In this document: positions 1 through 4,440 of the stretch, piece by piece | How positions within the stretch are numbered: the first letter of the stretch is position 1 | Layout of the letters: each line of letters begins with the position of its first letter | IMG/VR virus record: IMGVR_UViG_2684622652_000002 | Origin: an uncultured virus (IMG/VR IMGVR_UViG_2684622652_000002) | Taxonomy: Duplodnaviria; Heunggongvirae; Uroviricota; Caudoviricetes | Strand: one strand, 5' to 3' | DNA: 34,650 nt | The notes under the pieces: generated by a model | Seen by the model: the letters and a program-made list of their open reading frames with translations, nothing else | Databases searched by the model: none | Told to the model about the DNA's origin: nothing | Program-made: the position numbers and the translations under genes

Positions 1-116
1 TCATCAGCAACAACGCGTTCGGCAACATCGTCCCAGCGACCGTTATCCAACATAAGACCGCCCAGAACTGCCTGTTCCGCCTCAATAGAATGCGGTGGCG
101 ATTTAATTTCACCCAT
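1..116 (-). CDS. ban: DnaB-type replicative helicase (P1 Ban analogue), 5' end only; runs off the window
   Basis: Manual translation from ATG at 116 gives MGEIKSPPHSIEAEQAVLGGLMLDNGRWDDVAERVVAD, the DnaB N-terminal PPHSIEAEQAVLG motif. P1 synteny. Confidence 0.93.
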   Translation of the reverse strand, partial: MGEIKSPPHSIEAEQAVLGGLMLDNGRWDDVAERVVAD

Positions 117-138
117 GACTTCACTCTTTTATTAATAA

Positions 139-155
139 ATAAAAATTAGAGCAAT
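139..155 (-). promoter_or_regulatory. Degenerate C1 repressor operator upstream of ban
   Basis: Minus strand ATTGCTCTAATTTTTAT, 13/17 to the P1 C1 consensus ATTGCTCTAATAAATTT, with the first 11 nt exact. Confidence 0.7.
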
Positions 156-160
156 TATTA

Positions 161-289
161 TCAATTTTTCTTGACATTAGACTTGGGGCGCTTGCTTGCT
201 TTGATTAGCCCTTCTATGCCGGAAAAGACAACCAACAAGAGCACAATGGTAAAGACTGGATGGTCAAATATGAGTTGTAGAATTTGCAT
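161..289 (-). CDS. Small (42 aa) single-pass membrane protein
   Basis: MQILQLIFDHPVFTIVLLLVVFSGIEGLIKASKRPKSNVKKN: hydrophobic stretch then basic tail. GGGA upstream of ATG 289. The longer start at 367 would lie inside the structured RNA. Confidence 0.6.
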   Translation of the reverse strand: MQILQLIFDHPVFTIVLLLVVFSGIEGLIKASKRPKSNVKKN

Positions 290-321
290 GGTAATCCCAG
301 GTGCATCCGAGTGTGGAAAAT

Positions 322-1112
322 GTTGTGGTGCCGGGTGCCTCCCGGTGTCCTTTGGCTGGTTAGCCACCGTGGACGGGGAAAAAATTTTTAAAGGAGAACA
401 AACTACTAACCATTTCCCCGCGTGCGCTTAGCCGCATTCACCACAACGGAAAGAGCACTGTATCGTTTGTATTCCCTCCCTGTTGACAATCACCAATGGG
501 TCCGACGTCAACGTATCAATGCTCTTACCTGTTGTGTGCCGGTTACGTATCCGGCGAGGGCTTCCACCTCCGTATGCTTTTCGGCACTTCGTGCCCTGGC
601 TACATAACGGCAAGGGCATTGCCCCATCGTTCAGACCGACATGTCCCCCTCTCGGCTGCAACAAGTCAACGCCCTTGCAGTTATGTGCCGGTTACGGTTC
701 CGGCCAGGCCTCTTCCTCAACGGGGTATTCTCCATTCGGACTACCGTTTGTTGGTCGTTCCTGCGGTTAAGTTGTAGTGGCCGGTGCTGATATCCGGCCT
801 TGGTGGTATTTGCCGCCATACTTTCAGGCGCGTCCCAAGTCTCCAATTTCCACCCATCCGGCTATTACGGGTGCGCATCAGCCTGCGCATTCACTACAAC
901 GGAAAGAGCATTCCTGCCATGTGCACTCATTCAAGTGGAATGCATAAGGTGGTGTCTGAAATGCTCTTACCTGTTATGTCCTCGTCTCTTCCGAGGTGTC
1001 ACACCTGATCGCCAAGATGGTGAGTCCATGGAACGCCGCTATGCACGGGGCTTGCACATTCCGGCTACCTGGTTTGTTTGCCTGAGCAGAGGGAAAAGAA
1101 ACCCTCTATAAC
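322..1112 (-). ncRNA. Array of about 8 interlocking stem-loop modules (putative processed small RNAs)
   Basis: Repeated GTTRTR...YAYAAC closing stems. Direct repeats at 434-457/887-910 (23/24), 518-537/960-979 (19/20) and 531-547/680-696 (16/17). No credible ORF. Lies downstream of the promoter at 1195-1222. Confidence 0.7.
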
Positions 1113-1179
1113 GTCACCAGACCGCTATCGACGCATGTGCCAGACGCCGTGTTAAAAAATAGTCTCGCTTTACAAAATA

Positions 1180-1223
1180 AAATTTATTAGAGCAATTATA
1201 CTTAAAAAATCAATTAGAACAAT
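1180..1223 (-). promoter_or_regulatory. Leftward sigma70 promoter overlapped by two tandem C1 operators
   Basis: Operators at 1180-1196 (17/17) and 1207-1223 (14/17). -35 TTGTTC (1217-1222), 16-bp spacer, -10 TATAAT (1195-1200). Confidence 0.85.
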
Positions 1224-1228
1224 AGCGA

Positions 1229-1927
1229 TTATGGGATGATTTTGAACTCACGCAGTTTTGCCACAGCCTTGTCAAACTCGGCCATACCATCAACCATCGC
1301 CTCAACAGCTTTCGTTACTTTAGTATGCGCAAGAAGCACTTCGCGACGAACAGGTTCAAGCTGCTTCTGAAACACATCCTTCGCCGTTATGGTTCGTTCT
1401 GTTTCTTCAGCCTGGCGCAGAAGTTCTTCTGCTTTTTTGCGTAGCTCAAGTGGAGAGAGATTTTGTTTCGTTACAATCACTTCTTTATCCTTGTCTTTAA
1501 TATCTGACGATAATTGAACGGGGGCTGTCTTAATCTGCGCTGGCAGGCGCTCGGTACATTCTTTACATCTGAAGGACTTGTTCTTGTGTCCATAGAATTC
1601 GCCCGCGGGCTTTTCTTTCAGACATTCAGCGCATGTATAGAGCGGTTCGGTTGTGTCATCACCGTTTCTTTCTTCAATGTGCTCAGTTAAATAACGTTTA
1701 TGACGTAACCAAATGTTCTCCCGACCGGGCTTACCCGTACGGATGACCACCAGTTGGTTATAATGCTCGATCACCTCAAGCAACTGCTTACGCGACTTCT
1801 TGTTGAGAAACGTATACGCTTCAACCTTCAGCAGATCATTAACATCAACGCCATTCGGATGTTTGCTAACAAACGCTTTTACGCGATCCAGAGCTAAAGC
1901 CAGGTGAGGAGGTGTAGTTCTGGCCAT
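1229..1927 (-). CDS. Hypothetical early protein with a CxxC...CxxC zinc-ribbon-like motif and a C-terminal coiled coil
   Basis: 232 aa with CAEC...CKEC. ATG overlaps the dmt stop (TAATG), implying translational coupling. Confidence 0.8.
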   Translation of the reverse strand: MARTTPPHLALALDRVKAFVSKHPNGVDVNDLLKVEAYTFLNKKSRKQLLEVIEHYNQLVVIRTGKPGRENIWLRHKRYLTEHIEERNGDDTTEPLYTCAECLKEKPAGEFYGHKNKSFRCKECTERLPAQIKTAPVQLSSDIKDKDKEVIVTKQNLSPLELRKKAEELLRQAEETERTITAKDVFQKQLEPVRREVLLAHTKVTKAVEAMVDGMAEFDKAVAKLREFKIIP

Positions 1928-4440
1928 TAAGCTAATACTCCTATGATGTCAGTAACAGTTTCTCGCGTTTCCCCGGTACAGGATATAGAGCGGCGCGCCC
2001 GTAGCGGCCTTACATCAAATCCCATACTGGTATACAACTCACGAATCGCCGGGGCTCCACTATTTGTAATAACCACGCTGGCGCCGCGCTGGTGGGCGGC
2101 TTTCAGTGACTGCGCAAGACGTACCTGATCGTCAAAACGGAAGCTTTGTCCACTGTAATTCGTGAACCCTGATTTGCCCGGCATCGGCTCATACGGCGGA
2201 TCACAGAAAACCACATCCCCCTCCCCCGCCAGCGCCACAGTGTCATTGCAATCGGCAACGGCGAAGGTACAGCGGCTCGCTACGGCGGAAAAAGCTTCCA
2301 GTTCGGCTAATGGGAAGTACGGCTGGCGATACTTTCCAAATCCCACGTTGAACTCGCCCTGGCGGTTGTAACGCATGAGGCCGTTGTAGCAGTGGCGGTT
2401 GAGGTAGATAAAGGCGGCGGCGCGCTCCATCTGCGTCATGTCGCGGCGATTAAAACGTACTTTGATATCATCAAAGTATTCCGGGTTGTTGCCTTCACGG
2501 AACATTACGTTAGCTTTGTCGATTAGCGCCAGCGGCTCACGCTGCATCACCTGGTATGTCAGGATCAGGTCTTGGCAGGCGTCGCTTACGATCGCCTCAT
2601 CAAACCCGGCGTTCAGGAAGATAGAACCGCCACCAGCAAACGGCTCAATCAGACGGTGCCCATGAGGCATGTGCGCCAGCAAGTCATCAATCACGCCGAA
2701 CTTACCACCGGCCCATTTCAGGAATGGCTTTATGCGGCCAGATGGCGTAGTGGTTTTTGACAATCTCTCGATGATGCGTTTGCCAATCCAACGCATCACC
2801 GGCACCGCCATTGAGTTGCCGAGCGCTTTATAGCGTGGGCCGTCGGCGGCCAGGCGGTGCGCCTCTTCTTCAGGCATGTCAGGGAAATGTTCTCGCAGAT
2901 ACGCAAGCTCATCAGCGATTAACGTATTGCGCTTATTTGCGGGGATCAGGGTGTGGAAGTCAGGGAAGCCCTGAAGACGCTCACACTCAAGTGGAGTCAG
3001 GCGACGTACTGACATTCCGTTGATAATCGCTGGATAGCCCTGGTCGGGGTTCCCGCCACCCGCAGAAAACAGGCCGGATACCAGACCATTACTATCCTGA
3101 AGATGTTTCTCTCCACGACTGTTTTCAGTAAAAGCCTGCACAACACATGGTGCAGAATCCCCTCTCCCCGAACCACCTGATTGGGCATTTAATGCATGGC
3201 AAATGTCGCCCATATCACCGCGTCCATTGCGGGCGATCCGTGGCTGAAAGCCATATGTTATCGCAGTAGGATTACGGGACTGTGTCGTCGGCGATACACC
3301 TTCAGCCGACGCATATTGTGTACTGCTCATGTACGCAGGAAAGGCTAATACGGCGAGATGCTCATGGCTTTCCTGTTCACGGGCTCGCAAAGTACCAGGC
3401 CCTTCGCTCCAGAATCCGGCACCAGTGCTACTGAAAACAATTGGCGCTTCATGGTTGCAGGTCAATGTAGGGGCAGAATCATCAGTTTTAATTTCCGCGC
3501 CACCTTGCCCGTGGGCCATGACCGCTACAGGGATAAAATGTCCGGCGGCAGCACCTTCTGGCCGACCACCCGCGCCCCCCGTGAATGAGTGGGCAGCGAG
3601 CGCGCCTACTACTTGAAGATGTCCTGCTTGTCCCTGGTTGTCGTCTGCACCACATGTTCCAACGCCATTTGCAGTAAGGGCGGCAACCGTCTGCCACGTT
3701 TCTTTGCTCGGTGGAGTATTCCGACGCACGCCTTCGAACTCAAAAAGTATCGTTTCGGGATCGAACCCTTCTCCAGCACTTCCGACAACGAAGACGCGGT
3801 GGCGTCGTTGTGGAACGCCGAAGTATTCGGCATCAAGGACTCGCCAGGCCAGTTTGCGCTGTCGTCCAACAACACAACCAGACTGTGGCCACTTTGGATA
3901 ATGCTTGCGGGCTTTTTTGTCCCAGCGCCAGAACGTGCTGTTTTTTCCTCGCTCAGGTCGTGGACCAGGTTCGAACGGTTCATCTTCTCCAGCCAGACCG
4001 GCAAGGAGGCACCCAAAGGCATTGTCTTTACTGGAGAGGACGCCGGGTACGTTTTCCCAGCAGAATATGGCGGGTGGTAGGCCTTGCCTGATACGGCTAT
4101 AGTCGATTGCATTTACTAATTCCACATATGCGAGAGTTAACTGACCGCGCTTATCAGCAAGCCCCCTTCTCAGCCCGGCGATAGAGAATGCCTGGCATGG
4201 AGTTCCGCCCACCAGCAGGTCAGGCGCGGCTACTTCATTAGCGGCGACAGATGCCGCTATTTTGGTCATATCCCCCAGATTAGGTACTTCAGGCCAACGT
4301 TCGGCCAGAACGGCACAGGGGAAAGGCTCAATTTCGGAGAACCACGCCGGGCGCATACCCAGCGGCTCCCAGGCGATGCTGGCCGCCTCTATGCCGGAAC
4401 AAACCGAACCGTAAGTAAGGGTAATGCAGCTCTTTGCCAT
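1927..4440 (-). CDS. dmt: Bifunctional DNA methyltransferase: N-terminal C5-cytosine MTase fused to C-terminal Dam-family N6-adenine MTase
   Basis: C5 motifs CSGIEA, GGTPCQAFS, WENVPG, PQRRHRVF, RRLTPLECERLQGFP and YKALGNSM. Dam motifs KPFLKWAGGK, EPFAGGGS and DPPY. Start placed at ATG 4440, coupled to the upstream stop. Confidence 0.93.
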   Translation of the reverse strand: MAKSCITLTYGSVCSGIEAASIAWEPLGMRPAWFSEIEPFPCAVLAERWPEVPNLGDMTKIAASVAANEVAAPDLLVGGTPCQAFSIAGLRRGLADKRGQLTLAYVELVNAIDYSRIRQGLPPAIFCWENVPGVLSSKDNAFGCLLAGLAGEDEPFEPGPRPERGKNSTFWRWDKKARKHYPKWPQSGCVVGRQRKLAWRVLDAEYFGVPQRRHRVFVVGSAGEGFDPETILFEFEGVRRNTPPSKETWQTVAALTANGVGTCGADDNQGQAGHLQVVGALAAHSFTGGAGGRPEGAAAGHFIPVAVMAHGQGGAEIKTDDSAPTLTCNHEAPIVFSSTGAGFWSEGPGTLRAREQESHEHLAVLAFPAYMSSTQYASAEGVSPTTQSRNPTAITYGFQPRIARNGRGDMGDICHALNAQSGGSGRGDSAPCVVQAFTENSRGEKHLQDSNGLVSGLFSAGGGNPDQGYPAIINGMSVRRLTPLECERLQGFPDFHTLIPANKRNTLIADELAYLREHFPDMPEEEAHRLAADGPRYKALGNSMAVPVMRWIGKRIIERLSKTTTPSGRIKPFLKWAGGKFGVIDDLLAHMPHGHRLIEPFAGGGSIFLNAGFDEAIVSDACQDLILTYQVMQREPLALIDKANVMFREGNNPEYFDDIKVRFNRRDMTQMERAAAFIYLNRHCYNGLMRYNRQGEFNVGFGKYRQPYFPLAELEAFSAVASRCTFAVADCNDTVALAGEGDVVFCDPPYEPMPGKSGFTNYSGQSFRFDDQVRLAQSLKAAHQRGASVVITNSGAPAIRELYTSMGFDVRPLRARRSISCTGETRETVTDIIGVLA
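3609..4112 (-). CDS. Nested alternative-frame ORF, probable beta subunit of the C5 MTase (M.EcoHK31I beta-like); start uncertain
   Basis: 167-aa ORF on the same strand in a different frame inside dmt. Contains SSLSEVLEKGSIPKRYFLSSKACVGILHRAKKRGRRLP, resembling the L.DILE...kYyLS element of C5 MTases. Confidence 0.65.
   Translation of the reverse strand: MQSTIAVSGKAYHPPYSAGKTYPASSPVKTMPLGASLPVWLEKMNRSNLVHDLSEEKTARSGAGTKKPASIIQSGHSLVVLLDDSANWPGESLMPNTSAFHNDATASSLSEVLEKGSIPKRYFLSSKACVGILHRAKKRGRRLPPLLQMALEHVVQTTTRDKQDIFK

Follow-up and report, generated by a model that had tools for sequence, protein, structure and literature searches.

The leader upstream of ban and its module array

We analysed a 34,650-nucleotide window from an uncultured virus (IMG/VR record IMGVR_UViG_2684622652_000002), which is part of a P1-like plasmid-phage, and focused on the 0.8-kb gap before its helicase gene, which is filled with a chain of folded RNA modules (positions 322-1112; the array). 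The start of this gene, ban, encoding a DnaB-type helicase, lies on the minus strand at 1-116 and runs off the window; it is represented by an open-ended open reading frame (ORF, 3-116), and the aligned gene in relatives is annotated as dnaB or ban. Upstream on the same strand are an 869-aa fused methyltransferase ORF and a 232-aa ORF whose product matches phrog_2539. Between the latter and the array lies a promoter region that aligns with the annotated Pban and divalent C1 operator of P1.

An operator pattern search and the P1 alignment place a Pban-type promoter with two C1 operator sites at 1180-1223 (minus strand). The 16-mer operator is exact at 1181-1196 and has three mismatches at 1208-1223, both on the minus strand, and over the whole window the pattern gave four matches against 0.46 expected. 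A stretch of 28 nt is 89% identical to the annotated Pban/Obanab of P1, and a -10 hexamer, TATAAT, can be read at 1195-1200. By sequence, C1 operator sites overlap the promoter, which is the only one upstream of the array. Of the earlier proposal that the array is controlled by C1, the two operators and their alignment with P1 Pban/Oban stand, and control itself is plausible.

The hexamer GTTRTR, counted on either strand, occurs nine times in 322-1112 (at 322, 442, 531, 603, 680, 771, 895, 973 and 1107), and the 70 matches in the remaining 33,859 nt correspond to about 1.6 expected per 791 nt. A preliminary description of the window had divided the stretch into eight interlocking modules, A to H, bordered by GTTRTR...YAYAAC hexamers, and all nine hexamers lie exactly where it placed them. 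The observation of an interlocking RNA-module array is confirmed; as to the modules being structured, B, D and G as well as A and F were recovered by covariance models with strong covariation. Each module folds on its own, with minus-strand z-scores of -3.8 for A, -4.1 for B, -2.5 for C, -5.8 for D, -0.7 for E, -1.9 for F, -3.7 for G and -1.8 for H. For the entire stretch the minus-strand score was -4.2 and the plus-strand score -4.6, both better than shuffles; folding energy, being equally good on both strands, was dropped as a strand test.

Several details of the preliminary description had to be redrawn. The actual RNA is the reverse complement of the motifs as they were first written, and the single multi-branch class with a terminal hairpin (A, C, E, F and H) had brought three unrelated families together: a joint model holds for A and F alone, with C, E and H placed in separate families. 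Module C (531-608, minus strand), which is similar to P1 DNA, is a small multi-hairpin unit that ends in GCCGG-AUACGUAA-CCGGC and has an A-C mismatch in its closing stem on the RNA strand. Module E (680-775, minus strand), likewise similar to P1 DNA, is conserved and ends in the hairpin GCCGG-AACCGUAA-CCGGC; it is without a 5' closing strand of its own. Module H had been assigned to 973 to about 1112, and the hexamer at 1107-1112 is not conserved; an alignment of relatives shows a conserved multi-helix RNA of about 185 nt at 973-1157 (minus strand), the first module after the promoter. Its first hairpin (about 1085-1105) varies, and its 3' hairpin, with the loop GAAGAGA, has a covarying stem (CCUCG/CGAGG versus GCCGG/CCGGC). 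H aligns with P1, SJ46, a record of an Stx2c phage and viral contigs, and in three contexts it is the first element after a promoter.

An Rfam scan of positions 1-4000 gave a single match, to STnc100 over module A; the hairpin family and modules C, E and H had no Rfam match, and no such match supports a Y-RNA, a retron, a mimic of a CRISPR repeat or a transfer-messenger RNA (tmRNA) as the identity of the modules in the window.

Hairpin and cloverleaf families and the hexamer between them

Modules B, G and D belong to one family of long hairpins. B (442-536) has consensus arms and a unique top, G (895-978) has conserved arms and again a unique top, and D (603-685) is an arm variant, CAUAAC-U-GCAAGGGCG.../...UGCCCUUGC-C-GUUAUG; all three are on the minus strand. 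An inverted-repeat search recovered arms of 19-20 nt in all of them (I2 for B, I3 for G and I1 for D, whose 20-nt arms are 90% complementary). The shared scaffold consists of about 18 conserved arm pairs with a bulged A, a U-U mismatch and a top that is free to vary. When viral contigs were scanned for a 15-mer of the 5' arm, at least 119 loci were found, and in 93 cases the partner arm lay within 170 nt. A covariance model built from 36 hairpins (R1) scored 65.8 bits for B, 54.4 bits for G and 42.0 bits for D, each best on the minus strand, and matched 122 places in the window and 91 loci, which comprise 87 distinct hairpins, 62 distinct arm pairs and 52 insert families. In an alignment that was not fitted to the model, 98.7% of the cells pair and 11 of the 18 pairs change on both sides, a value reached by none of 500 shuffles. 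The flanking hexamers covary as well (CAUAAC/GUUAUG, CAAAAC/GUUUUG and ACUAUC/GAUAGU). The 18 conserved arm pairs, together with the pairing that continues into the insert, give about two turns of mostly paired helix, as in an RNase III hairpin.

On the minus-strand RNA, the conserved 3' arm of B and G (plus-strand positions 449-456 and 902-909), and that of most relatives, begins with UGCUCUUU, identical to the opening octamer of the rrn boxA antitermination signal; this may bear on how a long untranslated leader escapes Rho.

The second family comprises the cloverleaf-type modules F (771-900, minus strand) and A (322-447, minus strand). A covariance model built from 18 units (R2) scored 92.7 bits for F, on one strand only, and 36.7 bits for A, and its 68 matches always lie on one strand. 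In F, a closing stem of 9 bp encloses a first hairpin of 5 bp, a variable middle and a terminal hairpin of 5-6 bp that is stacked on the closing stem. In the alignment fitted to the model, 98.7% of the cells are paired (98.5-99.2% in the three helices) compared with 25-48% in slid controls, and 13 of the 19 pairs change on both sides, as high a count being found in none of 500 shuffles; this covariation is also evidence for module F. The family therefore has an acceptor-like closing stem, a stacked terminal hairpin and a first hairpin in the position of a D arm, all covarying, which are the features of a tRNA-like RNA. Some members form a subfamily with D-arm-like and T-arm-like sequences that joins R2 at 28-32 bits and whose members ARAGORN does not call tRNAs. 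We conclude that the cloverleaf family is tRNA-shaped and probably derived from tRNA.

The strand of the RNA is indicated by several features. G-U pairs outnumber A-C mismatches by 41 to 6 in the cloverleaves and by 88 to 12 in the hairpin arms; all 20 R2 matches in the window and eight P1-like loci lie on the strand of ban; and true tRNA genes in relatives are co-oriented with the cloverleaves. Because of this G-U excess, the one-stranded matches and the co-oriented tRNA genes, the RNA is read as the minus strand, and the orientation of the promoter and operators likewise argues for transcription from right to left, from Pban to ban.

At 60 of the 68 cloverleaf matches a hairpin abuts upstream and has the hexamer in common with the cloverleaf, whereas none of the 68 has a hairpin abutting downstream. 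The repeating unit is thus a hairpin directly 5' of a cloverleaf with six bases in common, and in the window the six-base overlaps of A with B and of F with G follow from the model coordinates. Since these bases are in common, the extended hairpin and the closed cloverleaf are mutually exclusive. Departures of the hexamer from GUUGUG are compensated on the 3' strand of the cloverleaf (GUUGUA/UACAAC, AUUGUG/CACAAU and GUUGCG/CGCAAC), and the variants of the upstream hairpin partner are all transitions that keep a wobble pair. Adjacent closing stems had been proposed to compete, and this is borne out in that both hairpin extension and cloverleaf closure show compensating or wobble-preserving changes; because of these changes at the common hexamer, both pairings seem to have been kept. 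The interlock may serve as a folding or processing switch.

Module A connects the array with known small RNAs (sRNAs). The Rfam match to STnc100 (RF02076) covers 445-324 on the minus strand with 39 bits (E 3.6e-6; model positions 31-147 of 206), against a gathering score of 47 bits, and homologous modules in relatives score 33.4 to 47.0 bits. As in STnc100 and PasD, the closing stem is followed by GGUGAAU, the final 5-bp hairpin abuts the 3' closing strand, and the RNA lies in a phage leader beside a regulated promoter. Unlike them, A belongs to a P1-type plasmid-phage, under putative C1 control, rather than to a region after Q/PR', and it is one of eight linked modules. The long A/U-rich arm of A carries UUCUCCUU, the complement of a ribosome-binding sequence, which is kept in four of the six A-type relatives compared. 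Of 5426 complete E. coli genomes, 427 contain module A, in most cases on a plasmid, and all 25 matches listed carry the entry 'none'.

In the accessible parts of the respective reports, the STnc100 and PasD RNAs of lambdoid prophages are described as having a common structure (bioRxiv 10.64898/2026.05.13.724894), PasD RNAs appear on northern blots as discrete, Hfq-dependent species (PMC8550237), EcOnc27, 3' of stx2B, is among the prophage sRNAs found by Hfq cross-linking (PMC4104026), and a copy of STnc100 lies 75 nt downstream of stx2 (PMC12370729). Those same parts treat the sRNAs singly and describe neither a hairpin partner nor an array. The excerpt available of a paper on small RNAs of P22 includes a late-leader RNA, P22E, which by its printed sequence is unlike the modules described here.

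Relatives, module reshuffling and tRNA genes

A megablast search with the stretch found pieces of it in 158 phage records and 607 plasmids, and full cover in two plasmids only. The P1 ban leader (trnA, trnT, trnI, a 'dicF-like region', plp and upl) represents the same operon with the same promoter and operators, and it holds homologues of A, C, E, the arms of G, and H. These homologues are reordered: H follows trnI just before ban, being last instead of first; C corresponds to the DNA immediately 5' of trnA (89.7% identity over 68 nt); E is contained in the 'plp' ORF, an annotation of the opposite strand (94.6% identity over 92 aligned positions); and A lies between upl and tciA. In general, P1-like loci contain 3 to 6 hairpins and 1 to 3 cloverleaf units each.

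The annotation of plp and upl over homologous DNA raises the possibility that the stretch encodes small proteins, on the opposite strand as in P1 or in the Arg-rich 34-codon frame of E on the minus strand. ORFs of 71-103 aa, the longest being 103 aa, do exist on both strands. However, none of the seven tested ORFs overlapping the stretch has a Pfam or PHROGs match, the frames are not kept where modules are reordered, and plp and upl are wholly antisense to covarying RNA modules, so that we find a coding function of the stretch barely credible.

As an observation on P1 itself, plp and upl (L001 3196-3765; L numbers denote the loci compared) run wholly antisense to the hairpin and cloverleaf modules of its ban leader, and they are probably not genes. 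Our literature search on P1 ban, plp and upl, and on ymfH and RNase III, returned nothing relevant.

In the three P1-like loci scanned by ARAGORN, three or four true tRNA genes lie within the array. The window differs in this respect: ARAGORN found no tRNA genes in the whole of it, Rfam gave no tRNA match in 1-4000 at E <=1, and neither ARAGORN nor RF00005 points to a tRNA gene with an anticodon arm, a 7-nt T loop and an acceptor end. The array of the window is a tRNA-less variant. Both the relation of the modules to tRNA and the real tRNA genes occupying the same slots in relatives had gone unnoticed in the preliminary description. The absence of an intact tRNA here, next to three or four in the same array of P1 relatives, and the fragments of tRNA arms in some hairpin tops would fit decaying remnants of a tRNA cluster that have no present function. 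Against such decay, compensating changes maintain the stems in many phage lineages, conservation of the module bodies reaches 85-97% even in distant elements, and P1-like plasmids, lambda and prophages of several genera of Enterobacterales have a conserved scaffold in common, which makes this explanation very improbable.

The tRNA genes of the P1-like arrays include a class-II tRNA-Ser(UGA) gene (L006 3192-3278, L007 3453-3539 and L014 979-1065), which in L006 and L007 Rfam scores just below the threshold for tRNA-Sec.

The scaffold extends beyond P1-like elements. In phage lambda, the same hairpin scaffold lies directly after tR' (44,788-44,863), in line with the lambdoid resemblance that had been suggested earlier, and within the late leader between tR' and gene S (44,788-44,940) the next element is a small module with a nine-pair closing stem, GUUGUGCUG/CAGCACAAC. 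Lambda has one unit that is Q-dependent, while the window has an array presumably controlled by C1. In lambdoid contigs the unit is found either downstream of Q/PR'/tR' and ahead of the holin gene or behind early promoters, and a genome scan found the scaffold in Serratia, Klebsiella, Pantoea, Kluyvera, Citrobacter, Erwinia, Brenneria and others, in prophages across the Enterobacterales. Identical 72-nt lambda-type matches in unrelated taxa (Oceanobacillus, Kitasatospora, Bradyrhizobium and others; L131-L168) were set aside; they come from short or low-coverage contigs and look like lambda DNA contamination of assemblies. In addition, a viral contig of a large phage with six tRNA genes (L086) carries, just downstream of its tRNAs, the same hairpins and a module with a tmRNA-like tag frame. 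Since a large phage carries the modules, the module grammar is not limited to temperate lambdoid or P1-like phages.

A further comparison is with a Salmonella plasmid that aligns over all 1161 bases at 91%. Its array differs mainly in the tops of B and G and in the first hairpin of H, with scattered point changes elsewhere. The tops of B and G in the window occur in none of the 168 loci, and the top of D occurs among them only in this sister plasmid, whose B top in turn recurs in seven loci, lambdoid contigs included. The bodies of A, C, E, F and H are found in 5 to 23 of the 168 loci (A in 9, C in 11, E in 11 and H in 23). The earlier idea of constant scaffolds with variable cargo is supported by this alignment and by the 52 insert families among 87 distinct hairpins; that the scaffolds serve in processing is a conjecture.

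Cassettes that act at the level of DNA could also produce such a pattern, the hairpins being single-strand recombination sites like the attC sites of integrons and the hexamer a crossover point. In favour of this, P1 and this element have their modules in different orders, hairpin tops account for most of the differences from a near-identical plasmid, and the hexamers read YAYAAC...GTTRTR. The size of the hairpins, their variable tops and the ...AAC and GTT... at the borders resemble attC, as do the 68-168 nt length range and the bulges. The attC core sites follow the consensus RYYYAAC and GTTRRRY, and the flanks of our modules, CACAAC/GUUGUG and variants, do not fit it (U at the third purine position, with misfits at the first positions). 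Moreover, about 20 nt of the arm are conserved and not just 7 nt, the top varies inside constant arms, which is not how integron cassettes differ, and the hairpins are partnered, on one strand, by real tRNA genes and by asymmetric RNAs of tRNA-like form. We know of no integrase link for these arrays, and an attC-like role appears highly improbable.

Taken together, the structures are conserved, covarying and one-stranded, they lie in a leader that is presumably repressor-controlled, and they are shuffled units that this leader has in common with tRNA clusters. The earlier interpretation as a polycistronic small-RNA cassette is supported in part.

Proposed processing and control, and variable cargo

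Our preferred explanation, which we hold on balance, is that the array is the untranslated leader of the C1-repressed ban operon and that its eight self-folding modules are processed into discrete stable RNAs. Its core unit would be the long hairpin directly 5' of a tRNA-shaped cloverleaf, with the 9-bp stem acting as an acceptor-like stem, the first hairpin taking the position of a D arm and the last one stacking like a T arm. Upon derepression, the whole array would be transcribed as one precursor, in which the hairpins may provide double-strand cleavage sites of the RNase III type and the tRNA-like junctions may be cut by tRNA-processing enzymes, releasing discrete stable RNAs. A single transcript is favoured by there being just one promoter upstream, with the operators across it, and by the lack of a terminator-like site in 1-1400. 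At least module A could then act as an Hfq-dependent base-pairing sRNA like its STnc100/PasD relatives, and the conserved scaffolds would offer short homologies by which modules are swapped and reordered between phages.

Two known systems offer precedents for these steps. RNase III hairpins between the early genes of T7 and those flanking rRNAs are imperfect, span about two helical turns with internal mismatches and punctuate a polycistronic transcript. The hairpins described here resemble them in this imperfect two-turn geometry. They differ in that the tops in the window are long and hypervariable (in the family sometimes tRNA-arm-like), that bases are in common with the next module, and that cleavage is hypothetical. 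The C4 antisense RNA of P1 and P7 (Rfam RF01695), matured by RNase P, is a precedent in the same phage group for a non-tRNA RNA being cut from a precursor by a tRNA-processing enzyme. The stretch differs in having no match to the C4 sequence or model, C4 RNA being found elsewhere only, in an Stx2c-phage locus.

Several points weigh against the processing of the leader into stable RNAs. The cloverleaf covariation counts come from a model-fitted alignment, which favours structure, and the hairpin set was seeded with an exact 15-mer. Modules A and F of the window have neither a 7-nt T loop nor a CCA end, and A falls below the Rfam gathering score for STnc100. The RNase III idea derives from the geometry of the helix and from a 1988 study by Daniels et al. 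that, by its title, reports RNase III sites in lambda late RNA, sites that may or may not coincide with the hairpin. The inserts of A, B, D, F, G and H have no complement longer than 16 nt elsewhere in the window. Finally, ban need not depend on read-through from Pban, because a second operator-bearing promoter-like site lies directly before it. This site contains a third C1 operator half-site at 145-155 (minus strand), an exact ATTGCTCTAAT, a half-site with six matches at one mismatch or fewer in the whole window against 0.8 expected.

Around this half-site there is a possible -35/-10 pair (128-175, minus strand) directly before ban. The ban gene of this element may be driven by its own repressible promoter besides read-through.

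Alternatively, the leader might act purely in cis, its modules not being released and instead protecting the leader and the ban message from Rho and from 5'-end-dependent decay, or timing the expression of ban. Every array is placed downstream of a strong regulated promoter and ahead of the first protein genes (following tR' and preceding the holin gene in lambda and lambdoid contigs, following early promoters in others), H comes first after a promoter in three contexts, and no terminator-like sites were found in 1-1400, a region that includes the array; these features agree with such a role. On the other hand, relatives of A accumulate as discrete Hfq-dependent RNAs, according to the accessible part of that report (PMC8550237), hypervariable tops do not sit easily with a role in stabilisation alone, any true tRNA that occupies one of these slots has to be released, and a separate operator and promoter-like site stands directly before ban. 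We therefore regard a purely cis-acting leader as rather unlikely, and favour the processed leader.

Within the wider family, some hairpin tops resemble parts of tRNAs. A T-arm-like hairpin occurs in 6 of the 52 top families (shuffle mean 0.095), and a 3-bp stem with a YYCAUAW loop, which resembles a CAU anticodon, occurs in 7 of the 87 hairpins (shuffle mean 0.01). The window's own hairpin tops contain neither a T-arm-like hairpin nor a CAU-type loop. Counting these CAU-type anticodon stem-loops, the T arms and, in relatives, a ten-codon tmRNA-like tag frame as mimics, a speculative reading would make the hairpin-cloverleaf unit a phage-wide display scaffold, whose tops and middles imitate parts of the translation apparatus beside base-pairing seeds. 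The array, first made on derepression, would then be an RNA-based counter-measure supplying decoys or sponges for host nucleases or factors that attack or use tRNAs, and it would evolve by cassette exchange. We consider this distinctly unlikely; if true, it would be an RNA counterpart of protein anti-defence islands. Our search of the literature on decoys and tRNA mimics found no paper on such arrays.

Should the reading of a processed leader prove correct, one modular RNA grammar would underlie a large share of the 'empty' leaders in temperate phages of enterobacteria, lambda and P1 included; to date only isolated pieces of it have come to light, in the form of individual small RNAs like STnc100 and PasD. 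The reading would also account for the production and exchange of small RNAs and tRNAs in phages, clear annotations of questionable protein genes (plp and upl of P1, for instance) and provide a defined set of hypervariable RNA cargos for target tests.

The tag frame belongs to a conserved module that is absent from the window. In P1 this module lies at about 2610-2790 of L001, with a ten-codon frame at 2668-2700 that starts with AND and ends with two alanines and a stop, and it is also found in L006-L010, L059, L086 and others, with six variants in 21 loci. Its peptides include ANDDLMMVAA, ANDDVVLMAA, ANDDLMLMAA, ANDEQFLAVA and similar ones, and in length and ends the frame resembles the tag frame of tmRNA. 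ARAGORN called no tmRNA at these loci, and the Rfam matches were sub-threshold only: 33.7 bits to tmRNA_permuted in L086 (gathering score 47) and 20.2 bits to tmRNA in L032.

Between the array and ban lies a 42-codon ORF (161-289, minus strand) that would encode a small hydrophobic membrane peptide. The small ORF at 164-289 has no Pfam or PHROGs match; the peptide is weakly TciC-like, with 36% identity over 25 aa to TciC of P1, and a small ORF in a different P1-like plasmid is 31% identical to it over 42 aa.

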